Sequence record: MG748548
Strand: one strand, 5' to 3'
DNA length: 64,000 bases
From: Escherichia phage EP335
The notes beneath the pieces are model-generated. The model ran no database searches, was not told the DNA's origin, and saw only the letters and a list, made by a program, of their open reading frames with translations. Numbering within the stretch: the stretch's first letter is position 1; the number at the start of each line of letters is the position of its first letter. Below are positions 30,886 to 45,174 of the stretch, piece after piece. A program made the position numbers and the translations under genes.

Positions 30886-31140
30886 CTAGATTAAGTCGTA
30901 ATATTGAATAATATCTTTCAGAGCAAAGTCACGAATCTGATCTTTCTCTGTATCATAGGCTGTCATAATCCAGCAAGGATTCCCGTCATTGTGATAAACG
31001 GAAACACCAACTGAAGTTCGGATAGGAATAACGGCGCGGTCTGCAACCTCACCTCTCCAATTACGATAGCGAAAGCGAAGAATTTGTTTCGTAGAGACTG
31101 GAGCATCAGTTGTTTCCTTTTTTAAATTGTTTTCTAGCAT
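30886..31140 (-). CDS. hypothetical protein
   Basis: track ORF 30886..31254 overlaps HNH gene by 149 nt; internal ATG 31140 gives 84 aa with smaller overlap. Confidence 0.3.
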   Translation of the reverse strand: MLENNLKKETTDAPVSTKQILRFRYRNWRGEVADRAVIPIRTSVGVSVYHNDGNPCWIMTAYDTEKDQIRDFALKDIIQYYDLI

Positions 31141-31507
31141 TATTTTCTTCTTGAGTTTTAGTCTTGTGACAAGGTTCTTTACAAAGCACTTGGAATCCGT
31201 GTTTCTCAACAAGTGCTCTCTGAATAATTTCATCCCAAGTAGCTTCATGGTCAATAGGGACCAGAGGTTCTATATGGTCAATAGCCATTTCTTTAACAGG
31301 GTGATCGTTGCCACACATAGCACATTGATAGTGCATTGCCAGCTTCCCTGTCTTGGGGTTTATCTTGCGTTCTGTTTGAGCATCTTTAAGAGCATCGAAC
31401 ATAGGCTTCCACTTCCTAGTCAGAGAACGAATCCCTGACTTGATGAAGGAATTGTATCGAGCTTCTGTCCAAGTGCCACTACAGCGAGTCTTCTCAACCT
31501 TCGCCAT
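31106..31507 (-). CDS. HNH endonuclease
   Basis: Cys/His motif HYQCAMCGNDHPVKEMAIDHIEP...H typical of HNH nucleases. Confidence 0.65.
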   Translation of the reverse strand: MAKVEKTRCSGTWTEARYNSFIKSGIRSLTRKWKPMFDALKDAQTERKINPKTGKLAMHYQCAMCGNDHPVKEMAIDHIEPLVPIDHEATWDEIIQRALVEKHGFQVLCKEPCHKTKTQEENNARKQFKKGNN

Positions 31508-31688
31508 AACCTACATCCATATCATCCTCCTGCCAGACTCGTTTGTTAACACGGTGACTAACCTTGTCAGCTTTAGGGATACGACCAGTACGTTGATCAA
31601 ACAGTTGGTGTTTAATCTTCTGATCTTTACGAGTTTCACGGTTAGGTGAAGTTTCATCATAAGTACGGTAGTTGAATTTATTACCCAT
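31494..31688 (-). CDS. small basic protein
   Basis: internal ATG 31688 with aagga RBS; K/R-rich 64 aa. Confidence 0.3.
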   Translation of the reverse strand: MGNKFNYRTYDETSPNRETRKDQKIKHQLFDQRTGRIPKADKVSHRVNKRVWQEDDMDVGYGEG

Positions 31689-32520
31689 TATCAATATCCT
31701 TATTCCAAATTTTATCAAGCCATGACCACTCGAAGAGGTCTTCTGGTGTTTGACCTACGAATAGGAGACGAGCATTCTCAAGCATCTTCTCTTCCCATTC
31801 TGTATCAAACTTCTTATAATATTCCATTCGCACTATATGATAAAGAGTCCACTTATCACTTACACCTTGTAAAAGGTTGATAGCGGCTTTCTTTCCAACC
31901 CCTTGACGACGGAGTTGTAACTTACCTCCCCACATAACTTCCTCACGTTCGCCACAACCGGGAATGTTATCTGTTCCATCACCAATGAGCATTTGATAAA
32001 AGAAGTTTTGCCAAGCAACCTCATCTGATACATAGTGAGGAGGAACCTCTTTCTGCCTTTCTCCACATGCCCACCGATAATGCCAACCGGGAGTTATCAG
32101 TAAATCTTTGTCTCGTGTACAGATGATGGTGTTCTTGTCAGTTCGCTGCCTTTCTGCTAATGCGTCATCAGCCTCTCTTCCGTAAACATCTATATACTCA
32201 TAATTGTTTTTAATGTAATCACCAACGTTCTGCCAGTGGAAAGGTCTTTCTCCCGGAGGTCGGTTGGCTTTGTATCCTTGCTGCTTTGCTACATCAAAAC
32301 GGAAGTTACCGCCTTCACTGAAATAGAAGACTGTCTTTCGACAGCCAGCGCGAGCAATGATTGTATCAAGTTTGTTTTGAAGTCGTTCAATTAGAAATCC
32401 ATAATCTACTGGTGTACGTCCTGTATCTAGGAAAGGATGCTCCTGAGTCAGAGCACCCACTTCGTATCGGAGAACATCAGCATCCACTAAAGCTACTTCA
32501 GGATACTTAACGTCTTCCAT
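31681..32520 (-). CDS. 5'-3' exonuclease / flap endonuclease (FEN-like)
   Basis: motifs VDADVLRY, YKANR, GREADDALA, DKDLLI, LIGDGTDNIPG. Confidence 0.8.
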   Translation of the reverse strand: MEDVKYPEVALVDADVLRYEVGALTQEHPFLDTGRTPVDYGFLIERLQNKLDTIIARAGCRKTVFYFSEGGNFRFDVAKQQGYKANRPPGERPFHWQNVGDYIKNNYEYIDVYGREADDALAERQRTDKNTIICTRDKDLLITPGWHYRWACGERQKEVPPHYVSDEVAWQNFFYQMLIGDGTDNIPGCGEREEVMWGGKLQLRRQGVGKKAAINLLQGVSDKWTLYHIVRMEYYKKFDTEWEEKMLENARLLFVGQTPEDLFEWSWLDKIWNKDIDNG

Positions 32521-32521
32521 A

Positions 32522-33113
32522 TTACTCCCCTAAAAGTTTACGAACTTCTTTCTTGAATGTTTCATACTCTTCAGGGTATTCAAACCCACACTCTAGCATT
32601 GCGTAGTGAACAACCTTAAGCAAGTCTTGAACCTTGTTCTTATCTTTGTGACGATAAGCATACTTAATCATGTTGCATTGCTGGAAATTGAGCTGAGGGT
32701 TATTTGCATAGAACATACTTAATCATGTTGCATTGCTGGAAATTGAGCTGAGGGTTATTTGCATAGAACTCAATAGGTTGAATTTTCTTAGAGTCAGGGT
32801 CGTAGTGAGCACCACCAACCATAACATCTAGTGCTGGACTTCTTTTGCTGGTTTGTTCAGTTGTATTCTTAAAACTGACCACAGGAACAGAAGAGTAAAC
32901 TATATACTCTTCCCCTACTGGTGGTTTTACTCTTAGTCCACGCATGGCATATTCAATCTTTATGTCAGCGGAACCTGAAGCGACCTCTTCAATAGATTTT
33001 CGATAGCTGTCAATAACTGCTCTTAGCATAGAGATTGTTTTGGTCATATCTTTTACTTTCTCATTCAGTACAACAATCTCTGATTCTTTGAAATCGAACA
33101 AATTCATTTCCAC
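32522..33113 (-). pseudogene. DUF3310-like phage protein split into two ORFs by a frameshifting 55-bp tandem duplication
   Basis: ORFs 32700..33113 and 32522..32716 both encode FYANNPQLNFQQCNMIKY across the two repeat copies; joined reading gives ~178 aa with motif AHY...IQPIEF...NMIKY.YR...DLLK..HY. Confidence 0.5.
32659..32768. repeat. perfect tandem direct repeat, 2 x 55 bp
   Basis: 32659-32713 and 32714-32768 identical (catacttaatcatgttgcattgctggaaattgagctgagggttatttgcatagaa). Confidence 0.85.
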
Positions 33114-33496
33114 TCTCCAATGATTTCCATATCAAATTTATCTCCTTTCTTCGTAAGGAGTATTGCCGGTTTATCTTTACTTTTCATGTACTCAAACATA
33201 TGCAGAGAGCCTCTTGACTCTCCATCCCAGAAGACTATCGCTGAGTCAGCATACTCTCCCATGTCTACGTTTCGAAGGATACCAGCTTTCTTTCCTAAGG
33301 TTGTCCAAGAAGGGATAAACCTTTTAATACCAAGGCCGTTATGCTTAGCAATAACCTCTCCATGAGAGTCTGGCCCTTTTGCTCCCCCTGATACAACTTC
33401 AGTGAAGAGCTTAGGTATCTCTTTCGGGAGTAAATCCCACATCTGAATAAAAGAAGGCCAGTCAATAGACCGGCTTCCTGCTATAATCACTTTCAT
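33104..33496 (-). CDS. Rossmann-fold SLOG/LOG-like protein (putative nucleotide-binding)
   Basis: MKVIIAGSR..., VVSGGAKGPD..., FWDGESRGS pattern resembles SLOG/LOG-type folds; assignment from motif memory only. Confidence 0.35.
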   Translation of the reverse strand: MKVIIAGSRSIDWPSFIQMWDLLPKEIPKLFTEVVSGGAKGPDSHGEVIAKHNGLGIKRFIPSWTTLGKKAGILRNVDMGEYADSAIVFWDGESRGSLHMFEYMKSKDKPAILLTKKGDKFDMEIIGEWK

Positions 33497-33497
33497 A

Positions 33498-34139
33498 TTA
33501 AGACCCTTGGAATTCTTCCTTGTCGAAGTGCTTCTCTACCACATACTCATACAGATCTTTATACTCTGCATAACGCCGATAGAAAGTCCCGTGTGAGATG
33601 CCTAGCTCTTTCTGAATAGAATCATGAGGGATACCTAAGAAGAGCATTGAGAACATGCTTGCGAGCTTCTGTGTGTCCATTGTATCACTCAAATCTTGGA
33701 AGAAGTAGAAGATACGAGATTCCATGAAAGGGTCCCCAACTGAATCATGCTTATTAACTGCATATTCCAGAGGACCTTCTGAGTAAATGTCAGGGTTGTT
33801 AAACATATCTGCTTCTGGAATAGCATAGATACGTCGATCACCAACTGTCTGTCGATTAGAACGGATAGACCAGATGATATTCTTCACACGATAGGTCATG
33901 TGCTCAATCTCTACTTCACCTTCCAGTAGAAGCTCTTCTTGCTTGGAATAGATAAAACGCCAAACATTAAGCAACACCTCTTGAGCTACATCCTCTGCTT
34001 CATGATAGTCACGAATGTCATACATAAAGAATTTGTGAACCACTTTCCAGTTCACCTTATAGAACTCATCGAAGGTTGGGAAGTATTTGATTGGAATACC
34101 GTGAATACGATATCGAGTAGGTGTTGTTTTCTTAGCCAC
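33498..34139 (-). CDS. phage-encoded sigma factor (sigma-70/ECF-like)
   Basis: region-2-like [15 protein letters not shown] and region-4 HTH-like [16 protein letters not shown]. Confidence 0.6.
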
Positions 34140-34169
34140 AAGTTATCCTTAACTTTGTTGGTTTTAAAT

Positions 34170-34376
34170 TTATACGCTGATCAAGTAAATAGCTGTTTCT
34201 GGGTTTGGTGTGTGTTGTTGTGGTGTTCCGGGGATACGAATCCACTCATCGTTTTCTGGTTCGTAATACAACCAAGCATCTGTGAATTTGAAAGTTCTTC
34301 CAAACACTTTATTATCATGTTCCCAAATTACGTGAACATTCCTAGTATCAGGTAATACTGTTTGCGCTCTAATCAT
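34170..34376 (-). CDS. hypothetical protein
   Basis: ORF track 68 aa. Confidence 0.4.
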   Translation of the reverse strand: MIRAQTVLPDTRNVHVIWEHDNKVFGRTFKFTDAWLYYEPENDEWIRIPGTPQQHTPNPETAIYLISV

Positions 34377-34633
34377 TGGATACCTCTTTCTTTTAGAGCC
34401 TCTATTAACCCGTTGTGGTTAGCAGCACACTCTGTATATTGGTCTTGATACCACTCTAGTGTCGTTGATAGTGCAACACCTTGTGGGCCTTCTAGCATCG
34501 GTAAATCTACCCTACACTCAGCTTTTAGGTTTGCTGGTAAGGGCATTAATTGCCTGCTGTTGTCGCTCATTGAACAGCTTGACGTACTTATCACTAGCGC
34601 AAACATTATAAAAAACTGGCTTAGTCTTTTCAT
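34373..34633 (-). CDS. o-spanin candidate (Rz1-like lipoprotein), overlapping i-spanin gene in another frame
   Basis: signal peptide ending ...ALVISTSSC (Cys20), Pro-rich mature part; 5' end embedded in 3' end of upstream gene. Confidence 0.45.
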   Translation of the reverse strand: MKRLSQFFIMFALVISTSSCSMSDNSRQLMPLPANLKAECRVDLPMLEGPQGVALSTTLEWYQDQYTECAANHNGLIEALKERGIQ

Positions 34634-34868
34634 AGTGCATCTCTTTGTAAACTGTCTCAGTGTTCTTCTTCCAATCTGATAGACCGTTGAGAACTCTCAT
34701 AGCAACCTCATCAGCTGCTTTGTTTCTCTCTATCTCTAATTCTTGCTGATGTTTCTCTTTGTCCAGATTATTACTATCTGTTTGATATTCGTTAAACTTC
34801 ATACCACCAAAGAACACAAGAGCTGAAAAGACGATGAACCCTAAGTTATCACTTAACGTGTTTTGCAT
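34518..34868 (-). CDS. i-spanin candidate (Rz-like)
   Basis: ATG 34868 with ggaga RBS; N-terminal TM segment LGFIVFSALVFFGG then charged coiled-coil periplasmic domain. Confidence 0.5.
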   Translation of the reverse strand: MQNTLSDNLGFIVFSALVFFGGMKFNEYQTDSNNLDKEKHQQELEIERNKAADEVAMRVLNGLSDWKKNTETVYKEMHYEKTKPVFYNVCASDKYVKLFNERQQQAINALTSKPKS

Positions 34869-34880
34869 ATTATCTCCAAC

Positions 34881-34903
34881 GAAAAAAGCCACCCGAAGGT
34901 GGC
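34881..34903 (-). terminator. rho-independent terminator (UUCG tetraloop) on minus strand
   Basis: minus-strand gccacc-ttcg-ggtggc followed by ttttttc, immediately downstream of gene ending 34927. Confidence 0.45.
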
Positions 34904-34926
34904 TAAACTATTACAAGGAGAGATAC

Positions 34927-35667
34927 TTAGAATGGAGATTCGTCTTCTTCAAAAGTAGACTCAGGCTCACGATCGATAGTAGGGATAGAAGCAACCGGCT
35001 CTTTCTGCTCGTTCTCAGAAGCCTTAGTGACTTCACGACCAGCGAGAGGAATGTTCTTAGCGTCATTAGCTTGGGTAAGCAGGTTACGCTGGAATGGGAA
35101 GATTACCTGATAAGCAGCTACGTTATCATCTGTTTCAGCATACGGTTCGAAGAAGACCAGAGGACTGCGAGCAGCAGCAACAGCTTCACGATACTTGGTA
35201 GGAATCGGAGTAATCTGTTTGATAGAGTTCTTAACTTCACCAGCTTTGTTGGTGTAAGAGTTGATTAGAACGTTTACAGGCTGACCTAACAGCATTTCTT
35301 TAAACCAAGCCAAATCACCTTTCAGTGCTTGGATGCTAGGGTCAACCATCTTAATTAGGTTGAGAATACCAGAGTTCTTAGCTCGTGGGTTTACATCGAA
35401 GCTCTTAAACTGACATGCAGGGCGCGGGTCAAGAGCATTGCCTTCAGAGTCCTTACCGGTTGCATCAACACCAATCAGCTCAAACGCCAAGTCCATACGG
35501 AAAGCTGGGTTCTTAGGAGTAACTGCTTTAGTCTTAGGGTCAACCCAAGGGTCACGATTGTGAACACCAAGACCAACAACACGAACGATACGAGCTTCGT
35601 ACTCACCATCAGGGATTACGTCGTAGTTGGATTTACGGGAAACGGACATAGTTGGGATAGAAGACAT
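34927..35667 (-). CDS. single-stranded DNA-binding protein (putative)
   Basis: 246 aa with acidic C-terminal tail ending EEDESPF, characteristic of SSB C-termini; located in replication block. Confidence 0.45.
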   Translation of the reverse strand: MSSIPTMSVSRKSNYDVIPDGEYEARIVRVVGLGVHNRDPWVDPKTKAVTPKNPAFRMDLAFELIGVDATGKDSEGNALDPRPACQFKSFDVNPRAKNSGILNLIKMVDPSIQALKGDLAWFKEMLLGQPVNVLINSYTNKAGEVKNSIKQITPIPTKYREAVAAARSPLVFFEPYAETDDNVAAYQVIFPFQRNLLTQANDAKNIPLAGREVTKASENEQKEPVASIPTIDREPESTFEEDESPF

Positions 35668-35721
35668 ATTTTAATTTCCTTATTTAATTTAAGATTGTTG
35701 CTCACTTTGAGCGGTTATGTA

Positions 35722-35736
35722 TAGTATACATTACAC
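35722..35736 (-). promoter_or_regulatory. promoter-like motif GTGTAATGTATAC (minus orientation)
   Basis: reverse complement of 35722-35736; in 415-bp AT-rich intergenic region upstream of minus-strand gene starting 35667. Confidence 0.3.
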
Positions 35737-35981
35737 CTATACCGATAAGGGTGCTATATAGTATAAGCAGTAGTGGTAGTAGATATTGACTACTAGTAAT
35801 GTATATATTGTATAGATGATAATTCTATTGCAGGCTTGTATATTGGGCAATTCTCAGAATCCCTTGCAAGTACCGAAGGGCAGGAGACACCTGCGAGATA
35901 AAAATAGAGAATTAAGGAATCCTTGATTTAGGTTGTAGGGACTCCTAGGGACTTTGATTCTCTATTTAAAAGAAATATTAA

Positions 35982-36089
35982 TTACTTACTACCTAAATAG
36001 TTAACTAACTTACTTAAAACCTTTTCAATAAGAATTGCTAAAAGGATAATTCCTAAGAAAGCTAATAAGAGAAAGGCATAAGTTACCAT
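35982..36089 (-). CDS. unannotated 35-aa single-TM peptide
   Basis: MVTYAFLLLAFLGIILLAILIEKVLSKLVNYLGSK; ATG 36089 overlaps stop of upstream ORF; ggaatgatgga upstream. Confidence 0.3.
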   Translation of the reverse strand: MVTYAFLLLAFLGIILLAILIEKVLSKLVNYLGSK

Positions 36090-36334
36090 TCCATCATTCC
36101 TTTTAATCTAGATTCTTCTACTATTCGCTGATAGAGTAAGTTAGACTCAGCTTGATCTTTTAACATTTTACTGTATTGATCTCTGAGACTATCTTTATAA
36201 ACAACAGGTGGTTTAAATAGTGATGATACTTTGTTCTTTTCTTCTTTCATCAAAAGTCTTCCTAATCTCTTGCAGAGATACAGCTTTAAAGTTGATTTGT
36301 TCCATCGAGGTACAGAAGTATCTCCAATCATCAA
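36083..36334 (-). CDS. hypothetical protein (true start probably internal)
   Basis: track ORF overlaps 3' end of phosphoesterase gene by 120 nt in another frame. Confidence 0.25.
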   Translation of the reverse strand: MMIGDTSVPRWNKSTLKLYLCKRLGRLLMKEEKNKVSSLFKPPVVYKDSLRDQYSKMLKDQAESNLLYQRIVEESRLKGMMEW

Positions 36335-36719
36335 TCACATGATTGTGAGTATGAGCATAGATGTTGAACTTCCCTCTCATTTCATCAGCGTGAATGGGAA
36401 TGTGAGTCACCCAAAACTCTTTGTACTTGAAGTCACCTGATACAGTTCTGAACACTTTCATAATCTGTGGTAACAAATCCAGTCTGTCATGATTCCCTAA
36501 GACAAGATGCTTCTCGCCTTTAATCTCATAGATGATATCCAGTGCATATGGTTCAAACACCCAATCACCAGTGAAGAAAGTCTTATCTCGTTTAGTCACA
36601 TGGTCAAACGCTGAAAGAACTGCTTTATCGTGCTCTTCAATACTACCAAACTGTTTACGAAACTTGCAGATATTACGATGACCTAAGTGACCATCTCCTG
36701 CGAAATATACTTCAGCCAT
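36213..36719 (-). CDS. calcineurin-like metallophosphoesterase (Ser/Thr phosphatase-like)
   Basis: motifs GDGHLG, TGDWV, LGNHD, HTHNH. Confidence 0.7.
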   Translation of the reverse strand: MAEVYFAGDGHLGHRNICKFRKQFGSIEEHDKAVLSAFDHVTKRDKTFFTGDWVFEPYALDIIYEIKGEKHLVLGNHDRLDLLPQIMKVFRTVSGDFKYKEFWVTHIPIHADEMRGKFNIYAHTHNHVIDDWRYFCTSMEQINFKAVSLQEIRKTFDERRKEQSIITI

Positions 36720-36728
36720 AAAGACCTC

Positions 36729-36929
36729 TTAGATTGTGCAACCATCACACACGAAATCCCCACTCAGGGATTCTTGTAATAAACGACTTTGTTCATCAGA
36801 GACTAACTGATTAACAACTTTCTGTAACTCTAACAGTTGATCAAAATCTATATATCCCCCTTCCTCAAGAACGTTAGTTTCAATCCCCCATAAAGGTGAT
36901 GGCATGTTTCTGCTTGCATTAAAAATCAT
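36729..36929 (-). CDS. hypothetical protein
   Basis: track ORF starts at TTG 36950; internal ATG 36929 has aaggaaa RBS. Confidence 0.35.
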   Translation of the reverse strand: MIFNASRNMPSPLWGIETNVLEEGGYIDFDQLLELQKVVNQLVSDEQSRLLQESLSGDFVCDGCTI

Positions 36930-36940
36930 CGTATGTTTCC

Positions 36941-37084
36941 TTATGTCCAAGATTTAGCTTTTACTTCAACGTAGGTTTTAACTTCACCTTTCAGAACCTC
37001 TTGAGAAGCGATAGCGCTTTCTTCAGAGTGGTGTACAACAGTAATTACTTTCTTCCCAATCTTATAAGTATGAACCCAAATCAT
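36941..37084 (-). CDS. unannotated small ORF, 47 aa
   Basis: ATG 37084 overlaps TGA of upstream gene (ATGA); translated by eye MIWVHTYKIGKKVITVVHHSEE... Confidence 0.3.
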   Translation of the reverse strand: MIWVHTYKIGKKVITVVHHSEESAIASQEVLKGEVKTYVEVKAKSWT

Positions 37085-37287
37085 TTAACTTCCTCAATAT
37101 CAACTAGTTCAAAACTTCCTATTTCTTCAAGCTGGATAATCTCTTTAACCTTCTCAACAGCTTTAATAGGGTTTTCTTCTTCTACAACTTTACACCCTGA
37201 CACTTCGAGACTGCCTGTTCCACGAAGGTATAGATTTAACTTATAGATCACTTTGTAATATTTCATCGTATTCCCAATTTCTTTCAT
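37081..37287 (-). CDS. hypothetical protein
   Basis: ORF track 68 aa. Confidence 0.35.
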   Translation of the reverse strand: MKEIGNTMKYYKVIYKLNLYLRGTGSLEVSGCKVVEEENPIKAVEKVKEIIQLEEIGSFELVDIEEVK

Positions 37288-37420
37288 AATATCCAGAGTT
37301 GTAGTTTAGGGCGCATTTCTCAGCCTCTTCTATGTCATCTGTGTTTAGGATATTAACCCAACCACCAACTTCATCAAAACCCTCTTCTTCTTCATTAAAC
37401 CATACGCTGTATTTCTTCAT
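37241..37420 (-). CDS. small acidic protein
   Basis: ATG 37420 (track start 37441 is TTG); D/E-rich MKKYSVWFNEEEEGFDE... Confidence 0.35.
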   Translation of the reverse strand: MKKYSVWFNEEEEGFDEVGGWVNILNTDDIEEAEKCALNYNSGYYERNWEYDEILQSDL

Positions 37421-37596
37421 CTTGATAAGACTCTTCCCCAATCCTTGATGTAACAGCGACCATCAACCCACTTGGTCTCTGATTTAAACTCTTGAGAGAT
37501 TCTTGTTTCACAGTCTTCTTTACTGTAATCACCAAGCATCTCCATCACACAAATAAACAGAGCTATACCAATGGCCCACAGAATTAATTTCTTCAT
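37417..37596 (-). CDS. unannotated small membrane protein, 59 aa
   Basis: MKKLILWAIGIALFICVMEM... N-terminal TM; ATGA overlaps at both ends (37593-37596 and 37417-37420). Confidence 0.35.
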   Translation of the reverse strand: MKKLILWAIGIALFICVMEMLGDYSKEDCETRISQEFKSETKWVDGRCYIKDWGRVLSR

Positions 37597-37985
37597 CGAA
37601 TCACCAAAGGCTCATCAGAATACACAGGAGCTGCTATTTCTACAGGAGGTGCTGCTCTGAGGTCATTAAGTCTTACACCTTTTAGCATTCCATCTAGATG
37701 GTCCATTTTAGGAATTCCAACAGGGAAGTCGTCAATCCAAATATCTACAAAGAAACCAAGCTGACGACACACATCATCCTTCTGTACGCCGTTACAAAAG
37801 ATAATAGGAATCTGCAAGCACTCTGCATCAATCTTAATGTCGTGGTTGTCGTACCCATTAGGCTCTGCAAAGCGATAAGTTACGAATCGTACATCATAAC
37901 CCTTCGACTGCATTAATGCTACCACAGAACGCCACAACTCTTTATCAGAGGTGTAGGTATCATCGTAATCTAAACCAATGTTCAT
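37593..37985 (-). CDS. HAD-like phosphatase/nucleotidase (putative)
   Basis: N-terminal DxDxT-like motif IGLDYDDTYT and later DIWIDD. Confidence 0.35.
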   Translation of the reverse strand: MNIGLDYDDTYTSDKELWRSVVALMQSKGYDVRFVTYRFAEPNGYDNHDIKIDAECLQIPIIFCNGVQKDDVCRQLGFFVDIWIDDFPVGIPKMDHLDGMLKGVRLNDLRAAPPVEIAAPVYSDEPLVIR

Positions 37986-37997
37986 ATCTAATCCTTA

Positions 37998-38026
37998 GAC
38001 AAGAAAAGCCGCCCGAAGGCAGCTTT
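37998..38026 (-). terminator. rho-independent terminator (UUCG tetraloop); 27-nt copy of terminator at 9137
   Basis: minus-strand aagctgccttcgggcggcttttcttgt identical to plus-strand 9136-9162. Confidence 0.5.
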
Positions 38027-38031
38027 TTAGT

Positions 38032-38229
38032 TTATGCTTCTTGTTCTTCTGGCTCTTCAGCATTCAGCTGTTCCAGCCGATCATTCTCAATACTCAGATC
38101 GATAACTACACCAGTAAGCTCTACTACAGCCTGACGCAGTGCATCTTTACCCATCGAGTTAACTTGGGTCAGGAAGAATGCTTTACCTTCTTCGGTGGAT
38201 AGGGTTTCTTTAAGTTCAATAGGGGTCAT
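38032..38229 (-). CDS. small acidic protein
   Basis: ORF track 65 aa, E-rich C-terminus. Confidence 0.4.
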   Translation of the reverse strand: MTPIELKETLSTEEGKAFFLTQVNSMGKDALRQAVVELTGVVIDLSIENDRLEQLNAEEPEEQEA

Positions 38230-38576
38230 TTATTATCTCTCATAAATTCGGGTTACTGTACCACCCGCAGCTTCTACTTGAGCTACGAATGAATCACGCT
38301 CTTCGTCTGTATAAACCAGCTCATTCAGGAACGTCCCTTCAGAGTCTTGGTACAGGATGTTCCACTTAGGCAGGGGCTTACGAATCAAGTCCATCATTCT
38401 TTATCCTCCCGTTCTTTCCACAGTTGGGCTAGTTCTAAATAATACTCAGCTTCTTCAGTGCGTCCTTGTTCTTTACAGACACTGTACTGACGGAAGCACC
38501 AATCTGAAGGTTGCTCTTCCACTTCCTTGTCTCCTTGAGAAGTAATCAATAAGACTACTTCATTTGTTTTTCCAAT

Positions 38577-38768
38577 TCACTCTGCCATTTGAGGAATCTC
38601 TAGATGCTTTATAGAGAAACTTTTATTTGGGAAAGTCTTTATTAGCCAAGCTGCTTCTTGGATAGCTTTGTTTTCTTTCTCGTAAATACAAAGCCTAGCA
38701 TCCAAGGAAACAATTCTCCCGGTTTCACTGACGACTACCCATGTTTTATATGTGTAAGTAGGTGTCAT
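38577..38768 (-). CDS. hypothetical protein
   Basis: ORF track 63 aa. Confidence 0.4.
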   Translation of the reverse strand: MTPTYTYKTWVVVSETGRIVSLDARLCIYEKENKAIQEAAWLIKTFPNKSFSIKHLEIPQMAE

Positions 38769-39140
38769 TTATTTCTCCAACACTGAGATACTGTACCAAT
38801 TGTGTAAGGTTTTTCTAACCCAAGCAATGCGTTTAGGGTTTTTGTGATGAGAGCCTGTGTAACGTTCTCTGTGGTATGTGTCACAACCGAAAGGGTATAC
38901 CGGGTCCTCAAACCCTTCGTGTTCAAACATATACGTCAGGTCATTAAAGTCTATATGTTTTGTGAAGAAGTAATAGCTTTTATAACAACGGTAGTTGAAA
39001 CACAAACCGTGCTCAGGACTGAACCATTTTGGGTATTCGTCTGTCTGAGAGATGTTATAATACTGGAGGAGGAAATCCTCCATCCCCCTTTCTTTGGCAA
39101 TACATCTTAGTGTTCGGTACATAATGTTACTCTGCTTCAT
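38769..39140 (-). CDS. hypothetical Cys/aromatic-rich protein
   Basis: ORF track 123 aa. Confidence 0.45.
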   Translation of the reverse strand: MKQSNIMYRTLRCIAKERGMEDFLLQYYNISQTDEYPKWFSPEHGLCFNYRCYKSYYFFTKHIDFNDLTYMFEHEGFEDPVYPFGCDTYHRERYTGSHHKNPKRIAWVRKTLHNWYSISVLEK

Positions 39141-39149
39141 TGTGAATTC

Positions 39150-40997
39150 TCAGTGTGTGTGATTCCAGTTTAATCCAATCTGACAATCAGATGCCAGAGG
39201 GCATTCCATCTTGAGATACTCACCAGCTTTCTTAACACAAAGCTCTGTAAGTTCTTTTAGTTTTTGTGCATCATTACGGTGAACAGAGAACTGCCCTTCA
39301 TCGTGCATGTCAATAACCTTCGCACAACGAACACTATCACGCTCAATCCACTTGTTAAGGAAAAGCATGGCATACTTCATAACAATCGCACCAGCACTCT
39401 GTAAGAGTGTATTCAGTGCTTTATGAACCATAACCTTACCTGTTGCGTCACGTCTCATTGTAATACGACGACCATCAACACCCAAGATATAACCTTGAGC
39501 TGCTTTCTCTGTCATACGCTCAATAAGAATTGCAATACAAGGATTCTCTGCCAAGAAACGTGTTCTCATTACTGAACCTTCTTCAGAGCCTCCACCAACA
39601 ATAGAACCAAGCTTAGCATCACCTGCTCCGTAGTTGAACGCATAGATAAACGTCTTAGCGTTGTCACGAGTAGGAAGACCAGCAAGTCTCTGGTTGTGGG
39701 AGTGGATATCACCTTCTAATAGAATGTCACGATACATAACAGCAGAAGCTAAACCACGTTCAGCTAATGCTTTCTTACCAGCGTTACCTTCTGCAATTGC
39801 TTCAGCAAGCATGTCTCTACACTCTTTAATGAGGTAGTGAGCAAGCATACGAAGTTCTAATCCAGAACCATCATAACCTAGGAAGAGTTCTCTACCAGCT
39901 GGTACATAATACTTATACAGCCCTACTGGTTTGTCTTTCTTTCCGGGTTTTCCACGTTCGTAGATAACGTTTGTATTTTTTCGTAAGTAACACCCATCAG
40001 GGATATTGTTGGTAATGATGAAAGGATAGTTATGACTATCATCTGTGGAGTAGTTAGATTGAAATAAACTCCTACACTCGTGACCAAACAGACCGCGAGA
40101 AGGAATATTAACAACAATGCGATGTTTAAAACGAAATGTCGGAGTAGCGCAGCTATTAGCTTCCGCTGAGAGTTTACCATCTGGACGTTCCTTATCAATC
40201 AGTCCATTAATCAAGCCTAGTCTGTGAGCCGCTACAACACGTCTCTTAAGCAGACTTCCCACTTTACCTAGATCACCCTCAAGACCTTCTTCAAGAGTCT
40301 CTTCGAGGTTTGTAGGAGCTGTGGGCCACTTGTTCGAAGTAGCTAATGCTCTCTTAATTTCATCAAAGGTTACAGGTTTCTTCCTGTTAGGGTTTAAACC
40401 TAAACCAAAGACATAAGCCTTCATGTAGTTGACAGTTTTGTGACGAAAGTGCTTATCCAAGAACTTCTTGATATCAGCATCAACCATCTGAGCTGTCTGT
40501 CGCTCTTTCTCATTGCCACGCATCCAAGAGTTGTACCATTCTTGATACGTTCCACACTTACGCATGGCTCGCTTAATCTCAAATGTGTTCCAAGGCTTCT
40601 TAGATGTATTAAATTCTGGAGGAAGAAAACCTTCATCCATCAGTGCTTCTTTAACTCGTGCATCCTTTGATGGGTCAAAGTCAACATACTCAACACAAGT
40701 AAAAGCTCCACCAATATCTTCTCTCTTTAACCCCACTCTGTCGCAATATAATTGAGGCCACTTCTGAAGAGCACCAGTCTTCTTAAAGGGTTTCATGTAA
40801 GTAGAACCATCAACCCTCATCTTAGGTAACAGAGGAATCAGCTCTCTGTCGATGTTAACGATAATCTCTCTGAGAAGGTGAACATACCACCGTGCATTCC
40901 TCCGATTAAAGTTGACACCACTCTTCGCTTGCTTTGAAATTATATCAGCGACAGTCATCTCCGTTAAGAACGGAAGTACATCAGGGTTCTCCATCAC
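39150..40997 (-). CDS. DNA polymerase, family A, polymerase domain only
   Basis: motif A DGSGLELRMLAHY, motif B RDNAKTFIYAFNYGAGDAKLG, motif C VIDMHDEGQF; no 3'-5' exonuclease motifs in N-terminus. Confidence 0.85.
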   Translation of the reverse strand: MMENPDVLPFLTEMTVADIISKQAKSGVNFNRRNARWYVHLLREIIVNIDRELIPLLPKMRVDGSTYMKPFKKTGALQKWPQLYCDRVGLKREDIGGAFTCVEYVDFDPSKDARVKEALMDEGFLPPEFNTSKKPWNTFEIKRAMRKCGTYQEWYNSWMRGNEKERQTAQMVDADIKKFLDKHFRHKTVNYMKAYVFGLGLNPNRKKPVTFDEIKRALATSNKWPTAPTNLEETLEEGLEGDLGKVGSLLKRRVVAAHRLGLINGLIDKERPDGKLSAEANSCATPTFRFKHRIVVNIPSRGLFGHECRSLFQSNYSTDDSHNYPFIITNNIPDGCYLRKNTNVIYERGKPGKKDKPVGLYKYYVPAGRELFLGYDGSGLELRMLAHYLIKECRDMLAEAIAEGNAGKKALAERGLASAVMYRDILLEGDIHSHNQRLAGLPTRDNAKTFIYAFNYGAGDAKLGSIVGGGSEEGSVMRTRFLAENPCIAILIERMTEKAAQGYILGVDGRRITMRRDATGKVMVHKALNTLLQSAGAIVMKYAMLFLNKWIERDSVRCAKVIDMHDEGQFSVHRNDAQKLKELTELCVKKAGEYLKMECPLASDCQIGLNWNHTH

Positions 40998-41009
40998 CCT
41001 CTCCTTTTA

Positions 41010-41387
41010 TTATCGGTATAGTAAATCTGTAAACGCTTGGTTGTCTGCTATTACGTCCAAAGCCTCATCCGTGCTAGGAACTTCAGTTTCTTCCACTTGG
41101 TACGCAACCTCACGTACACGGAAAGCTCTTGCAGGAACCCTAAAGCCAGCATGTCTCTCCATAACATCTTTCTGAACCTGTGCAAGCTTCATACCCCACA
41201 CTTCTTCATAAAGCTCTGGATGTTTATTACTAATAACTACATACTGACGATGTACGGACTTCGACTCTCTGACCTTAGCTAATAACTCATTAAACAAGTC
41301 TAACTCTTCTTCAGAGAGCGCATCTACAACGTCTTCCCACTTCTCTACACAGAAGCGGTGGGCATGTCTGATAGGAAGTGACATCAT
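41010..41387 (-). CDS. hypothetical protein
   Basis: ORF track 125 aa. Confidence 0.45.
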   Translation of the reverse strand: MMSLPIRHAHRFCVEKWEDVVDALSEEELDLFNELLAKVRESKSVHRQYVVISNKHPELYEEVWGMKLAQVQKDVMERHAGFRVPARAFRVREVAYQVEETEVPSTDEALDVIADNQAFTDLLYR

Positions 41388-41642
41388 TTACCCCTTAGGA
41401 AAAGGAAGAAGATTCTCTACTGCAACACGATAAACCTTTTCTACGTTTTTGTTTTTATAGGAGATGAACTTGCCATCAGCACCACGAAGGATTACATTAG
41501 TGCGAGCAGTCTTCGGGTTCTGGGAAATCTGACCAGCAATGATAGATGCATTAAGTGCGTTCTCAGCGTAGTTAGTAAACTTCCACTTAACAAGTTTATT
41601 GGCAATTGAATCGATAATGGTTACAGTTTTTACGATAGACAT
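41388..41642 (-). CDS. hypothetical protein
   Basis: ORF track 84 aa. Confidence 0.45.
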   Translation of the reverse strand: MSIVKTVTIIDSIANKLVKWKFTNYAENALNASIIAGQISQNPKTARTNVILRGADGKFISYKNKNVEKVYRVAVENLLPFPKG

Positions 41643-41711
41643 AATTTCTTACCTAAGAAGTTTAATTTGGTTTATATAAAAGAAAAGGCCACCCAAACGG
41701 GTAGCCTCTGA

Positions 41712-42026
41712 TTAACTAGAGCTTAAAGCTCCTTTGCGACCGCCAGCTGATTTTCCAGCGCGATCTCCACTTTTGCCGCCAGCTGAACGATTTCCGCTGA
41801 CTGTCTCAACACGTAAATTGCTTGACGCATTAGAGCCTCCTGATTTAATGGCTCGTTTGTGTCCGACATCTTTACCTTTGAGTGCAGATTTTCCAACGCG
41901 TTTTTCAACGATGCGACGTGCACGGTGGCGCTGAGCATCTCCGCTCTTACTTCCAATTCCCGTTTCACCTCTTGCGATGGCTGTACGTCTTTCTTGTGCA
42001 TAATCTCTTTTAGCCTTATCAGTCAT
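41712..42026 (-). CDS. small basic low-complexity protein (G/K/R/S-rich)
   Basis: aaggag RBS 7 nt upstream of ATG 42026 supports this frame over overlapping ORF 41723..42001. Confidence 0.5.
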   Translation of the reverse strand: MTDKAKRDYAQERRTAIARGETGIGSKSGDAQRHRARRIVEKRVGKSALKGKDVGHKRAIKSGGSNASSNLRVETVSGNRSAGGKSGDRAGKSAGGRKGALSSS

Positions 42027-42084
42027 TTACAACTCCTTAATATATCAGTGTACACTAAGGAGTATACATTATGAGAGGGTAGCT

Positions 42085-42825
42085 TTAGTTGCCATCCTTC
42101 TCCATAGCTTTAACGATTGCTTTACAGAAACCAGAACGAACAATATCATCCGAGTCACCATCAACAATATCAGCGAACTCATACAGATCGTGCTCGTCAA
42201 TGAACTCGGTAGCCCAAGTAAGACCACTCTCTCGACCTTTCATATCGTGCTGGTTAGTGTCACCCATGCAGAACAGCTGGGATGTTTCACCCAAGCGAGT
42301 CATAATAGAGAATGCTTCATCTTTGGTTGTATTCTGGAACTCATCCACAATAACAATGGCATCATTGAAAGAGCGACCACGGAGATATTCCAGAGGTACG
42401 AACTCAATATTACCGTTACCAAGCTGGCATTCATAGAAACCTTTACCATACCGCTGAGTGATTACATCAACAATAGGCATTAGGTACGGTTCGAACTTAT
42501 CACGAAGCCCACCCGGAAGTAGTCCAAGAGAGTTACCCATGCCAACAGAAGGTCGGCTAATGATAATCTTTTGAATCTTACCGCTCTTCAGTGCATCAAT
42601 GACAGTAGAGGTGATGACGAACGTCTTACCACAGCCCGCAGGAGCGTCTGTGAACACCACTTGTTTAGTCTTGATAGCATTGAGCAGCTCAGATTGAAAC
42701 TGATTCTGAGGGACCACTGGCTTCGCTAAAACAACCTCTTCATATTCACGCTTACCCTTCTTGGTGACTAAGGCTTCACGACGTAAATCTTTACGAGACT
42801 CTCTACGGGACTGTCTACGGCTCAT
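42085..42825 (-). CDS. phoH: PhoH-like ATPase
   Basis: P-loop DAPAGCGKTF, motifs YLRGRSFNDAIVIVDEFQN and GDTNQHD. Confidence 0.8.
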   Translation of the reverse strand: MSRRQSRRESRKDLRREALVTKKGKREYEEVVLAKPVVPQNQFQSELLNAIKTKQVVFTDAPAGCGKTFVITSTVIDALKSGKIQKIIISRPSVGMGNSLGLLPGGLRDKFEPYLMPIVDVITQRYGKGFYECQLGNGNIEFVPLEYLRGRSFNDAIVIVDEFQNTTKDEAFSIMTRLGETSQLFCMGDTNQHDMKGRESGLTWATEFIDEHDLYEFADIVDGDSDDIVRSGFCKAIVKAMEKDGN

Positions 42826-43007
42826 TTGCGCTCTCCTAGCTCTTCGTAATTAAATACAGAGGTTCGACAATCTTTACATGTTGTTGTATAGACCCGAACA
42901 TTAATGAACTTCTTGTTCTTCCCTTTGGTGGGTGAGCCTTTAGCAAGCTCACTAATAACCTTAGAACTCAGGTTTAGGTTTGTGCCCTCGCATTTAGAGC
43001 ACTTCAC
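42822..43007 (-). CDS. small zinc-ribbon protein
   Basis: CSKCEG...CKDC pattern, 61 aa. Confidence 0.4.
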   Translation of the reverse strand: MKCSKCEGTNLNLSSKVISELAKGSPTKGKNKKFINVRVYTTTCKDCRTSVFNYEELGERK

Positions 43008-43170
43008 TCAGGCTCACCAACAGTAACTTCCCATACAACTTGAGAGATGATATTGTTGATCTGTTTGATTTGCTCGTGAGTCAGTTGCATGCCTTTCATT
43101 TTCCGAGAGGCATTACTTCGTGCTCTTCGCTGACGGTAGAAGTTATTCTTCTTAACAGAGTGTAAGCTAC

Positions 43171-43416
43171 TCATTTCACAAGCTCCACTTCTTCAATGCT
43201 GTACCCTTCATAATCCCACTCATCTCCCCAATAACTCTCCTTACCTTCGAGAAGTGATTCAATAACTCGCTCACGGTGTTTATCTGGAATAGGAAGACTT
43301 TCTAAATCCTTGCGTTCAGGGGGTGATAGAAAAACTTTGACAGCATAGGAGTAATCAGAACTCCCTTCCATCTCTCCTGCAAGTTTTGTTAAGACGAAAC
43401 ATTTAGATGCAGTCAT
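43171..43416 (-). CDS. hypothetical protein
   Basis: ORF track 81 aa. Confidence 0.4.
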   Translation of the reverse strand: MTASKCFVLTKLAGEMEGSSDYSYAVKVFLSPPERKDLESLPIPDKHRERVIESLLEGKESYWGDEWDYEGYSIEEVELVK

Positions 43417-43634
43417 TTCACAACCTTAAACTTAAATGTTGTTGGGTGGTAGTAGTGTAACCTGTTTATTGTATGCTTAGTCTCATGATACAGGATACAA
43501 GAGTGGCACATTGAATGGTGCAAACAGGTTACTGGATTACGTTTGAAATTGGCAATAAGCTTCCGCTTGTTACAGAAGCTACATGTTTTGTGTAAGTCCA
43601 TTAACTCTCCAGAGTTTTCCTTAGAGCTGACCAA
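43413..43634 (-). CDS. small Cys/His-rich protein
   Basis: ORF track 73 aa (CSFC...CLHHSMCHSC). Confidence 0.35.
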   Translation of the reverse strand: MVSSKENSGELMDLHKTCSFCNKRKLIANFKRNPVTCLHHSMCHSCILYHETKHTINRLHYYHPTTFKFKVVK

Positions 43635-44994: not shown

Positions 44995-45167
44995 TCACTC
45001 TTCCCATTTACAAACAGCTCAAGATGTCGCTTGGTAGTGGGGACTACGATATAGTCCTTGTAGCCATGAGACTTAGCAAGCTCTTCTGCTATCTTTTTGG
45101 TAGCACCTAATGCTACTACACATCGGCACACGATGATTGTGTGCGCTTTGTATTCATCTTTGTTCAT
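44991..45167 (-). CDS. unannotated small ORF, 58 aa
   Basis: translated by eye (MNKDEYKAHTIIVCRCVVALGATKK...); stop TGA overlaps ATG of thioredoxin gene (ATGA). Confidence 0.35.
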   Translation of the reverse strand: MNKDEYKAHTIIVCRCVVALGATKKIAEELAKSHGYKDYIVVPTTKRHLELFVNGKSE

Positions 45168-45174
45168 AAAAACC

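Follow-up and report, generated by a model that had tools for sequence, protein, structure and literature searches.

Small genes with overlapping stop and start codons in the minus-strand module of a phiEco32-like phage

The small open reading frames (ORFs) at positions 36941-37596 of Escherichia phage EP335 (record MG748548) very probably belong to a dense minus-strand module of replication and nucleotide metabolism, in which they are real small genes and lie in one middle-class transcription unit, with a coupling in translation that is probably facultative. Positions are those of the window, the whole stretch of 64,000 nucleotides that was analysed, and the genes, motifs, and blocks given below are on its minus strand unless stated otherwise. 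The region holds four separately evolving small genes, which encode a transmembrane (TM) 59-aa, an acidic 59-aa, a 61-aa, and a 47-aa protein and follow a 130-aa gene; these five are referred to as the focal chain. Orthologues are already annotated in close relatives, and hence the arrangement is the ordinary compact gene layout of a phage and not a new discovery. The ORFs below 60 aa serve here as a calibration point, as they are not unannotated biology and have been called in phiEco32-like phages since 2008. The temporal class assumed for the focal chain is corrected, and two leads are obtained: the gene-precise turnover of cassettes at a stop/start overlap, and the occurrence of the 47-aa module fused to a domain of the dATP/dGTP pyrophosphohydrolase family. 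No conserved micro-protein was singled out as surprising.

By its sequence, the source is a phiEco32-like podophage of the Gordonclarkvirinae with KBNP1711 and Bas89 as its nearest kin. The window shows 94.7% identity to KBNP1711 and 95.7% to Bas89 by megablast, and about 90 further phiEco32-like records match it. In the small genes discussed here, Bas89, a phage that infects K-12 carrying a restored O16 antigen, reaches 96-100% identity. The curated minus-strand module comprises 74 genes with 73 junctions. Greedy tiling by the longest ORF was dropped, as plus-strand shadow ORFs displaced genuine small genes, and comparative evidence was used instead. The coding density is 95.3% and drops to 89.5% without the genes below 60 aa. 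Such genes make up 13 of the 74 in the module, and hence gene calling in this phage group has to work with a low size limit. Rfam and tRNA scans of the window returned zero matches.

The reading of the small ORFs as chance frames is effectively excluded for all except the 35-aa ORF (35982..36089), and the others are genuine protein-coding genes. Their dN/dS values (Nei-Gojobori, against seven relatives) range from 0.05 to 0.39, and those of the other same-strand frames are about 1 or higher. The dN/dS ratio fixes the frame and not the strand, since an antisense frame whose third positions are aligned scores about 0.1 as well; hence the strand was assigned from ORF intactness and context. In a check that a preliminary description of this DNA had suggested, the ORFs proved to be conserved in related phages, being intact and of constant length in each relative that carries them, and tblastn against the seven relatives gave 60-100% protein identity over the full length. 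Plus-strand shadow ORFs are broken by stops in relatives of about 80% identity. Likewise, the Shine-Dalgarno (SD) duplex has a mean free energy of -5.5 for the starts of genes and of -2.3 for internal ATGs (P=2e-23), and the value for small genes (-5.78) is comparable to that for large ones (-5.90).

The focal chain is headed by the 130-aa gene (37593..37985; dN/dS 0.06), a homologue of phi32_47 and a core gene (phrog_4919), which has its own SD and lies 46 nt behind the preceding gene. Its protein had no match in Pfam and PDB sequence searches. The N-terminus carries an LDYDDT (DxDxT-like) motif, and a single phage record (H121) names the product ‘class B acid phosphatase’. The ATG of the TM 59-aa gene (37417..37596; phrog_14089, dN/dS 0.16) overlaps the TGA of the 130-aa gene as ATGA at 37593-37596. 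The encoded protein has a hydrophobic segment at residues 5-21 (mean Kyte-Doolittle 2.44) and, in its C-terminal part, two cysteines kept in six of six homologues. It is found in 67 phage records, every one of them phiEco32-like, and its gene is an accessory cassette that is absent from MN05. Small membrane proteins of the periplasmic or superinfection-exclusion type, for example T4 Spackle, were considered as a comparison; membership in the Pfam family T4_Spackle (PF25676) was rejected, as the match (E=0.078, 14 bits against a cut-off of 27) covers only the hydrophobic residues 1-37.

The acidic 59-aa gene (37241..37420; dN/dS 0.05), a homologue of phi32_45 (phrog_10314), follows with an ATGA overlap at 37417-37420. 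Its protein (pI 4.1, charge -12.5) occurs in 86 records, and in 82 of these its identity is at least 90%. The AF2 model (pLDDT 67) predicts a beta-hairpin and a helix, for which Foldseek against PDB found no fold match (best E 3.3). This gene, too, is an accessory cassette, which Bas89, Paul, and NJ01 lack. The 61-aa gene (37081..37266; MKYYKVIYK..., dN/dS 0.39, 24 records) overlaps the acidic gene atypically, by 26 nt and out of frame, which fits a cassette-insertion joint. Its matches are limited to KBNP1711/Bas89-type phages and it has no PHROG family. The start of this gene is GTG in Bas89, and the KBNP1711 annotation shortens it to 40 aa.

The 47-aa gene (36941..37084; dN/dS 0.08), a homologue of phi32_44 and a core gene, closes the chain with an ATGA overlap at 37081-37084 and is found in 152 records. 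It is present here in a short form, whereas KBNP1711 and MN05 have a form of 73-74 aa. The AF2 prediction is a beta-beta-alpha-beta fold (pLDDT 82). The same module is found elsewhere as the N-terminus of dATP/dGTP pyrophosphohydrolase (PF04447) proteins of other phages, with E values of 7e-21 to 5e-35 for the fusions in P0027, P0031, and P0033 and full-length matches in siphoviruses, for example Henu4_2. Because of this fusion, the best guess for the 47-aa module is a tie to nucleotide-pool functions; a more speculative and rather doubtful view would see in it a portable regulator, or a partner, of enzymes of the dATP/dGTP pyrophosphohydrolase type. No PF04447 domain turned up when the mid-sized unknown proteins encoded in this operon were searched with Pfam. 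Foldseek of the 47-aa model against PDB gave no significant match (best E 0.6); the non-significant ones include T7 Gp2 (4lk0_M, TM 0.51) and the RNAP epsilon subunit YkzG. An acidic 66-aa gene (36729..36929; phrog_11811, dN/dS 0.22) with its own SD and a C-terminal CDGC motif lies 11 nt behind the 47-aa gene. The idea that the focal small proteins are distant beta-beta-alpha paralogues, which their sequence patterns and the topologies of the two AF2 models had prompted, was discarded, since all-vs-all hhalign gave below 10% probability for every focal pair, and the same run clearly detected two other paralogue arrays.

Several further small genes of the module show the same character. The 54-aa gene (38233..38397; dN/dS 0.21) is homologous to phi32_49 and to SU10 gp47, and the latter has been found by mass spectrometry (6.32 kDa, 70.9% coverage, 2 peptides). 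It is ATGA-overlapped with a 42-aa gene that starts with GTG (38394..38522; dN/dS 0.21). A basic 56-aa gene (43004..43174; phrog_35253, dN/dS 0.16) lies within four successive -4 overlaps, which in the order of transcription join 43413..43601, 43171..43416, 43004..43174, 42822..43007, and 42085..42825. The 58-aa gene (44991..45167; phrog_19504) is ATGA-overlapped with the thioredoxin gene (44719..44994), and its identity to the homologues in KBNP1711, MN05, and NJ01 is only 57-59%. The 51-aa gene (61330..61485; dN/dS 0.15) is a homologue of phi32_90 and a core gene; its protein has a signal-like N-terminus and a conserved cysteine pair, with 92-100% identity in seven relatives. It is the first gene after a conserved non-coding gap of 233 nt and hence is not coupled to the upstream gene.

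The preliminary description had listed seven such ORFs, and direct translation reproduces four of them exactly: 36941..37084 (47 aa), 37417..37596 (59 aa), 44991..45167 (58 aa), and 35982..36089 (35 aa). The other three exist with coordinates that were wrong by 1-3 nt. The 51-aa ORF had been placed at 61331..61487, which is 157 nt and not a multiple of three; the ORF given as 38233..38400 was off at its end; and 43007..43174 had left off the stop codon. The TM or signal-like N-termini proposed for the 35-aa, 59-aa, and 51-aa ORFs find support in the sequence, and the proposed ATGA overlaps are real at 37593-37596, 37417-37420, 37081-37084, and 44991-44994. The junctions at 46583 and 46798 are also present, as TAATG (-1) overlaps.

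Stop/start overlaps are numerous in the module: 13 of the 73 junctions are exactly -4 and six are exactly -1, an enrichment with binomial P of 6e-13 and 1e-4, respectively, against a crude null of uniform spacing over +/-40 nt. Within the focal chain, three junctions are -4 and the fourth is -26. As many as 43 of the 74 genes begin with ATGA or GTGA (A at +4), overlapped or not; hence the tetranucleotide alone is undiagnostic, and what counts is whether it coincides with the in-frame stop of the upstream gene. Compact genomes of prokaryotes and phages generally show overlaps of -4 and -1. The cistron geometry here is the same as in the stop/start-overlap coupling of bacterial and phage operons, enriched above other spacings, and the ATGA geometry would let a terminating ribosome reinitiate on the next cistron. 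Unlike established ATGA/TAATG coupling, however, the overlapped starts match independent starts in SD strength (-5.66 versus -5.92 for spaced starts, p=0.47) and in predicted unpaired probability (0.488 versus 0.482, p=0.8). The chaining by stop/start overlaps that the preliminary description called translational coupling is therefore present, while the coupling itself is a geometric inference, and these proxies hold no hint of dependence.

The strongest alternative is strict coupling, in which the downstream cistrons of the ATGA chains are translated only by handed-over ribosomes so that their stoichiometry is fixed. This is possible but not favoured. It draws on the strong enrichment of both overlap types, on the finding that 13 of 20 TGA stops sit in -4/-1 overlaps, on the retention of the -4 geometry in eight of eight genomes despite differing cassettes, and on the weak SD of some overlapped starts (the TM 59-aa gene and the 61-aa gene at 42822..43007, both -2.8 kcal/mol). 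Overlapped starts are on average neither weaker nor less accessible than spaced ones, though, and strict coupling is hence not indicated; both kinds of start are more accessible than random positions, and such geometry, common in compact genomes, does not by itself imply dependence. Each small gene has its own SD and an accessible start, and hence the coupling is probably not obligatory but a facultative means of fine-tuning in a compact genome.

The overlaps of the focal chain are also the places at which its gene content changes. Sequence comparison finds whole-gene cassettes gained or lost exactly at the ATGA junctions, and in eight genomes the boundaries of the chain are all [A/G]TGA with any cassette content. 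Of the acidic and 61-aa cassettes, phiEco32 and SU10 carry the former alone, and Bas89, Paul, and NJ01 the latter type alone; the window resembles KBNP1711 in carrying both in tandem, with the atypical -26 joint. In MN05 the junction of the 130-aa and acidic genes is the product of a deletion of the TM gene between two ATGAAGAAAT repeats. The junction sequence ATGAA(G/A)A is the site of cassette gain and loss, and hence gene-precise indels always recreate a -4 junction. Mosaic exchange of cassettes at gene junctions is an established concept in tailed phages. The focal chain agrees with it in the presence or absence of whole genes, in breakpoints at gene boundaries, and in short shared joints (ATGAAGAAAT / ATGAAAT). 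It differs from the usual case in that the shared joint is the overlapping stop/start itself, so that the -4 overlap is regenerated. Recombination at the ATGAA(G/A)A junctions would account for the indels, and the shared joints may stem either from recombination mediated by microhomology or from selection that acted later.

At the 3' end of the unit, the 35-aa hydrophobic ORF (35982..36089), a homologue of phi32_41 (phrog_24970), is the last ORF and overlaps its predecessor as ATGGTAA (-7). It is probably a gene, though the weakest of the set. A conserved non-coding block (35863..35947), which ranks in the top 1% or so of 60-nt windows for invariance among Kuravirus relatives, extends 3' from a long hairpin (stem arms 35967..35954 and 35915..35902) with a U-run. 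From its predicted structure, the hairpin and block after the 35-aa ORF could plausibly be a terminator or an element of the operon 3' end. The predicted terminator after 35982 has a z-score of -1.4, and a consensus terminator scan did not pick up the structure there.

It is unlikely, but deserves consideration, that some of the listed ORFs are not genes and in particular that the 35-aa ORF is a chance frame inside a conserved regulatory or RNA element. The dN/dS of 0.87 carries no signature of purifying selection on the protein, and the variable sites by codon position (10/5/7) have no third-position bias. The 3' half of the ORF is near-invariant in nucleotides and runs into the conserved block, positions 35987-35998 pair with 35926-35937 as an inverted repeat, and Paul retains the downstream block without the ORF. 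Against this, an ORF of exactly 35 aa is intact in six of seven relatives with conserved MVTY... and ...LSKLVNYLGSK ends, and every substitution in its core leaves it hydrophobic. In a simulation, the probability of retaining an open frame together with TM-grade hydrophobicity was about 0.05 per lineage. An AAGGA SD lies 8 nt upstream, and the ORF has its own PHROG family.

Turning to expression, exact TAATGTATA motifs, the promoter consensus of the phiEco32 gp36 sigma factor, lie upstream of the homologues of phiEco32 genes 13, 26, 40, and 58, in agreement with experimentally mapped promoters; in phiEco32, promoters have been mapped upstream of genes 40, 58, and 68 (PMC8948821). The motif at 42063..42071, upstream of the phi32_58 homologue, is likely the middle promoter of the unit that holds the focal chain, and the one at 35725..35733, upstream of the phi32_40 homologue (34927..35667), would mark the start of the next middle transcription unit. 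The unit thus delimited probably runs from the motif at 42063-42071 to the conserved hairpin and U-run just before 35725-35733. The literature on phiEco32 and SU10 assigns DNA polymerase, nucleotide-metabolism genes, and the sigma factor to the middle class, which in SU10 covers CDS 25-68. The DNA polymerase and sigma-factor genes flank the focal chain, which, like the ORFs at 35982, 38233, 43004, and 44991, belongs to the middle cluster that lies downstream of the homologue of phi32_68. Carried over by homology and synteny from phiEco32 and SU10, its class would be middle, dependent on the gp36 holoenzyme. Only 46377-46995 (with the junctions 46583/46798) and 61330..61485 fall in the portion designated early in the SU10 paper; for genes 69-90 the SU10 paper has early, whereas Lavysh 2022 classes gp79 as middle. 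The SU10 paper also points to possible read-through of early transcription into the middle genes and to weak sigma70-like promoters among them, and hence some early expression of middle genes is possible.

The small genes are already known, being orthologues of annotated hypothetical proteins. They correspond to phi32_41-50 and phi32_90, SU10 gp38-49 and gp92, and Bas89_0034-0046 and 0088, with further orthologues in KBNP1711, Paul, MN05, and NJ01. The order, strand, and position between the phosphoesterase and DNA polymerase genes are the same in seven relatives, and the lengths (35, 47, 58/59, 54/55, 42, and 50/51 aa) as well as the ATGA junctions agree with the phiEco32-like orthologues. 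A published core-gene table includes phi32_42, 44, 47, 48, 49, 90, and 94. Every ORF that the preliminary description listed has a PHROG family (E 1e-15 to 1e-43).

Two views expressed there, that the micro-proteins are typical early host-interaction factors and that they are easily missed, find no support for the focal chain and its neighbours. Taken together they would make the ORFs early-expressed host-takeover proteins overlooked by annotation, which is quite improbable. Small phage proteins can act as takeover factors, and the module itself holds an 80-aa gene (52270..52512) whose product shares 72% identity with phiEco32 gp79, a proven regulator of RNA polymerase, and which is ATGA-linked to a 60-aa gene (52091..52273). 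The Gordonclarkvirinae are reportedly highly resistant to the tested defence systems and poorly studied, the read-through suggested for SU10 would supply early transcripts, and annotation of the smallest ORFs is uneven, as with the truncated 61-aa gene of KBNP1711. The focal chain nevertheless sits in the middle cluster with gp36-type motifs at its flanks. Pfam, NCBIfam, PADLOC, a PDB sequence search, and Foldseek against PDB gave no significant takeover or anti-defence match for the focal proteins, and the one functional association that emerged is with nucleotide metabolism. Both phiEco32 gp79 and T7 Gp2 are similar to the focal proteins in size, without significant similarity in sequence or fold. 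The orthologues are annotated in most relatives, for example as phi32_41, 44, 46, 49, 50, and 90 of phiEco32 and in SU10, Bas89, Paul, and KBNP1711, and the gaps are only sporadic (the 35-aa ORF in KBNP1711 and NJ01, the 51-aa ORF in MN05).

For the focal genes as middle-class members of a known module, function can be guessed from composition, one domain fusion, and medium-confidence models. The best guess for the TM 59-aa and 51-aa proteins is that they are disulfide proteins of the envelope or exposed to the periplasm, and that for the acidic 59-aa protein is a cytoplasmic binder under tight constraint. A more speculative and rather doubtful proposal is that the ATGA-swapped cassettes and the 47-aa and 51-aa micro-proteins are effectors (of anti-defence, superinfection exclusion, or nucleotide-pool control) that aid the reported broad defence resistance of the Gordonclarkvirinae. 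As this phage group is poorly studied and defence-resistant, functional screens could reasonably include the conserved micro-proteins.

The 168-aa metallophosphoesterase gene (36213..36719; dN/dS 0.08; Metallophos E=0.003, below the curated cut-off) is overlapped at its 3' end by a 55-aa gene (36083..36250; phi32_42 homologue, core gene, phrog_14248), by 38 nt and in the +1 frame. That the 55-aa ORF is instead the C-terminal part of the phosphoesterase, made by a programmed +1 frameshift, is very unlikely: its frame is open for 83 codons and the phosphatase of Paul is a single in-frame protein of 212 aa with a C-terminus homologous to it, but neither a slippery sequence nor a +1 shift site can be recognised in the overlap (GATGAAAGAAGAAAAGAACAAAG), the ORF starts at a conserved ATG of its own with an upstream AGGA motif and is a separately annotated core gene in phiEco32 and others, and by inspection the metal-binding motifs all lie inside the 168-aa part. 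The 55-aa gene is one of the genes below 60 aa that were absent from the preliminary description, together with 37241..37420, 38394..38522, a 59-aa gene with two TM segments (45175..45354), a 57-aa gene (34373..34546), and a 38-aa gene with a GTG start (62301..62417).

Megablast queries with 35900-39200 and 45400-49400 matched phiEco32-like podophages (Gordonclarkvirinae) of E. coli and Shigella, about 95 in all. KBNP1711 (94.7% for the first query, 89.9% for the second) and Bas89 (95.7%, 92.5%) came closest, with phiEco32, SU10, and other Kuraviruses at ~80% identity. The structural genes of the window lie on the plus strand up to ~30.8 kb, and only the minus strand is used from ~30.9 kb to the end. 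The chains of small overlapping minus-strand genes are correctly observed and non-random; this is how the phage family is normally organised, and the genes already have annotations.

Translation bore out the 47-aa (36941..37084), TM 59-aa (37417..37596), 58-aa (44991..45167), and 35-aa (35982..36089) ORFs as first described, along with the ATGA overlaps at 37593, 37417, 37081, and 44991 and the TAATG overlaps at 46583 and 46798. Three other ORFs exist with amended limits: the 51-aa ORF spans 61330..61485 (61331..61487 is no multiple of three), the 54-aa ORF ends at 38397 instead of 38400 (38233..38397), and the 56-aa ORF is 43004..43174 instead of 43007..43174.

For comparison, the homologous module (~38 kb) was taken from seven relatives (phiEco32, SU10, Bas89, KBNP1711, Paul, MN05, and NJ01), and Nei-Gojobori dN/dS was computed for each minus-strand ORF of at least 25 aa. 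The ratio cleanly separated the real frames from the remaining ones: 0.08 for the 47-aa ORF, 0.16 for the TM 59-aa ORF, 0.05 for the acidic 59-aa ORF (37241..37420), 0.39 for the 61-aa ORF (37081..37266), 0.21 for both the 54-aa and 42-aa (38394..38522) ORFs, 0.16 for the 56-aa ORF, and 0.15 for the 51-aa ORF, against about 1 or more for out-of-frame ORFs. An antisense frame whose third positions coincide with those of the sense frame also scores low, hence dN/dS settles the frame and not the strand. The strand is settled as minus by ORF intactness: the minus-strand small ORFs are intact and conserved in length in every relative carrying them, and in the relatives at ~80% identity stops break up the shadow ORFs of the plus strand (37001..37246, 37916..38134, 38357..38545, among others). 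Anti-SD complementarity is far stronger at gene starts than at internal ATGs (-5.5 vs -2.3 kcal/mol, P=2e-23) and is alike in small and large genes. The module is 95% coding, and 1,917 nt would be left unexplained without the genes below 60 aa.

The 35-aa ORF is the weakest case of the set. Its dN/dS is 0.87, its variable sites fall 10/5/7 by codon position, and the nucleotides of its 3' half are nearly invariant, running on into a conserved non-coding block. It is nevertheless probably a gene, as 6/7 relatives keep the 35 codons intact, with both termini conserved and the core always hydrophobic; in simulation, an open frame with a hydrophobic core was kept with P ~0.05 per lineage. Almost invariant non-coding islands were found across five ~80%-identity Kuraviruses at 35661-35734, 35863-35947, 45340-45421, 56198-56305, and 61501-61697 (invariant columns, 81% non-coding vs 73% coding). 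Their positions are those of promoter motifs, terminator-like hairpins, and the 233-nt gap that precedes the 51-aa gene; none matched Rfam.

The view that such ORFs are overlooked did not hold, as orthologues are annotated in all seven relatives (in phiEco32 as phi32_41, 42, 44-50, 90, and 94; likewise in SU10, Bas89, Paul, MN05, KBNP1711, and NJ01) with only sporadic omissions. The relatives' records of the same module carry 13-19 annotated genes below 60 aa, the smallest of 35-38 aa, and their -4 (ATGA) junctions number 10-14. Every ORF of the preliminary description has a PHROG family, of unknown function, and only the 61-aa gene and an 81-aa gene (43171..43416) are without one. The homologue of the 54-aa ORF, SU10 gp47 (6.32 kDa), was detected by proteomics with 70.9% coverage. 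The RefSeq product name 'RNA polymerase' is attached to the 42-aa homologues phi32_50 and SU10 gp048 (sequences L005, 9861-9989, and L007, 9478-9606). This name found no support in phrog_1312 (unknown function), NCBIfam (no match), or PADLOC (only a sub-threshold HmaB hit, E=0.0023).

Junction spacing was tabulated for 74 minus-strand genes with homology-supported starts, 13 of them below 60 aa and 42 below 100 aa. Spacings of -4 account for 13/73 junctions and -1 (TAATG) for 6/73, other overlaps for 14/73, gaps of 0 to 3 nt for 13/73, and larger ones for 27/73. The enrichment against a uniform null (-4, P=6e-13; -1, P=1e-4) is the familiar compact-operon signature, and 13 of the 20 genes with TGA stops are in -4 overlaps. 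SD strength is equal in overlapped and spaced genes (p=0.47), and so is the predicted unpaired probability from -15 to +8 (0.488 vs 0.482, p=0.8), with predicted accessibility above that of random positions for both. The overlap geometry would thus permit termination-reinitiation, and nothing suggests a requirement for it. In the minus-strand module (30886..63959), A follows the start codon at +4 (ATGA or GTGA) in 43/74 genes against 30% A overall, a strong second-codon bias independent of the overlaps.

The chain of the 130-aa (37593..37985), TM 59-aa, middle cassette, and 47-aa genes is found in all eight genomes, with the TM gene missing in MN05, and its middle content is variable. PhiEco32 and SU10 carry the acidic gene only, as does MN05, and Bas89 the 61-aa gene only; Paul and NJ01 have a gene related to the 61-aa one at 36% identity. 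The window and KBNP1711 hold both the acidic and 61-aa cassettes, at an atypical out-of-frame overlap joint (-26 nt in the window). Wherever the middle cassette is single, [A/G]TGA stands at each boundary. The MN05 junction of the 130-aa and acidic genes, cctttggtgattcgATGAAGAAATAC (8214-8217 of its module sequence L009), is the exact product of deleting the TM gene between the window's two 10-nt ATGAAGAAAT repeats at the acidic (37411-37420) and TM (37587-37596) gene starts. Likewise, the Bas89 junction of the TM and 61-aa genes, GTGAAATATTAC, is that of acidic-gene loss. Comparison of the sequences shows the ATGA stop/start overlap to be the exact point at which this chain gains and loses whole-gene cassettes. 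Among 50,697 phage records, the acidic protein matched 86 (82 at ≥90% identity), the TM protein 67, the 61-aa protein 24, and the 47-aa family 152, among them E. coli siphoviruses and phages of Klebsiella, Vibrio, and Citrobacter. The metagenomic protein P0024 (83 aa) joins an acidic-protein N-terminus to a phosphoesterase C-terminus; this chimera is a natural deletion recombinant that has lost the 47-aa and 66-aa genes, together with the 61-aa gene if there is one.

In phiEco32, promoters of the gp36 sigma factor (consensus tAATGTAtA) have been mapped upstream of late genes 6, 13, and 26 and middle genes 40, 58, and 68 (PMC8948821). In SU10, CDS 25-68 are middle and CDS 69-125 early, the class of genes 69-90 differs between sources, and read-through from early promoters is held possible. 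In the window, an exact TAATGTATA motif precedes each of the homologues of genes 13 and 26, and likewise those of gene 40 (motif at 35725-35733, minus strand) and gene 58 (motif at 42063-42071, minus strand); a copy with one mismatch precedes the gene-68 homologue. The position of the focal chain downstream of DNA polymerase, with the P58-like motif on one side and the P40-like motif on the other, would make it middle by homology, not early; the suggested early timing fits only the 51-aa ORF and the junctions at 46583 and 46798, which lie in the region classed as early in SU10. The intergenic region of the P40-like motif also holds an exact TAATGTATA copy on the opposite strand (35797-35805, plus strand). 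The two form a perfect inverted repeat of 10 nt with 61 nt between them; the plus-strand copy could act as an antisense or divergent promoter, or simply belong to a structure.

The focal small proteins matched no curated family or solved structure. The AF2 models (47-aa, beta-beta-alpha-beta, pLDDT 82; acidic, beta-hairpin and helix with a disordered tail, pLDDT 67) gave no significant Foldseek match. An exhaustive profile search placed the 47-aa module in 14 clusters, with full-length matches in siphoviruses such as Henu4_2. In P0027, P0031, and P0033, proteins of other phages, it is N-terminal to a dATP/dGTP pyrophosphohydrolase domain (PF04447/DUF550, 'EaA'; E down to 5e-35). This fusion is the sole functional association found, and it fits the adjoining nucleotide-metabolism genes better than a host-takeover role. 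The proposal of overlooked early host-interaction factors holds only in part: the genes are real and a few lie in the early region, but they are already annotated, the focal chain is middle by homology, and the one association is nucleotide-linked. In KBNP1711 and MN05 the 47-aa gene exists in a longer version of 73-74 aa whose C-terminal extension differs. The TM 59-aa and 51-aa proteins each have a hydrophobic segment at the N-terminus with a conserved Cys pair after it, a layout suggestive of exposure in the envelope or periplasm.

Several neighbouring genes deserve mention. The 130-aa protein at the chain head has an N-terminal LDYDDT (DxDxT-like) motif and is labelled 'class B acid phosphatase' in one phage record; with no match in Pfam or PDB sequence searches, it is a putative HAD-like phosphatase by label and motif. 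The 63-aa protein (38577..38768) clearly belongs to Pfam T4_Y13H (PF25744, E 2e-16) and therefore to a small protein family also present in T4. The 168-aa phosphoesterase (36213..36719) and the overlapping +1-frame 55-aa gene (36083..36250) correspond to one fused 212-aa phosphatase in Paul (6950-7588 of module sequence L008), which probably reflects gene fission/fusion, a frameshift product being less likely. The dNMP kinase gene is two overlapping ORFs (32522..32716 and 32700..33107); against the KBNP1711 protein of 176 aa they match residues 1-131 and 114-176. The split could be genuine, or it could stem from a frameshifting mutation or from an error in sequencing. The annotated Bas89/phiEco32 glutamine amidotransferase N-terminus falls on an ATT codon at 56223 (minus strand), and the protein from the longest conventional start, GTG 56088, is 45 aa shorter; the start could be non-canonical or the N-terminus truncated. 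An HNH endonuclease ORF specific to the window (44250..44732; 27-37% identity to other HNH genes of the group) sits between the thymidylate synthase and thioredoxin genes. The DNA polymerase gene (39150..40994) is unbroken, and the KBNP1711 and Bas89 copies are split by endonuclease insertion. Two tandem paralogue arrays were found: three basic (pI ~10.2) 65-71-aa proteins linked by TAATG overlaps (46377..46583, 46583..46798, and 46798..46995; hhalign probability 91-97%), and an ~80-aa family within 61719..63639 (61719..61961, 62428..62673, 62676..62921, 62921..63160, 63162..63407, and perhaps 63409..63639; several pairs scored probabilities of 55-95%).
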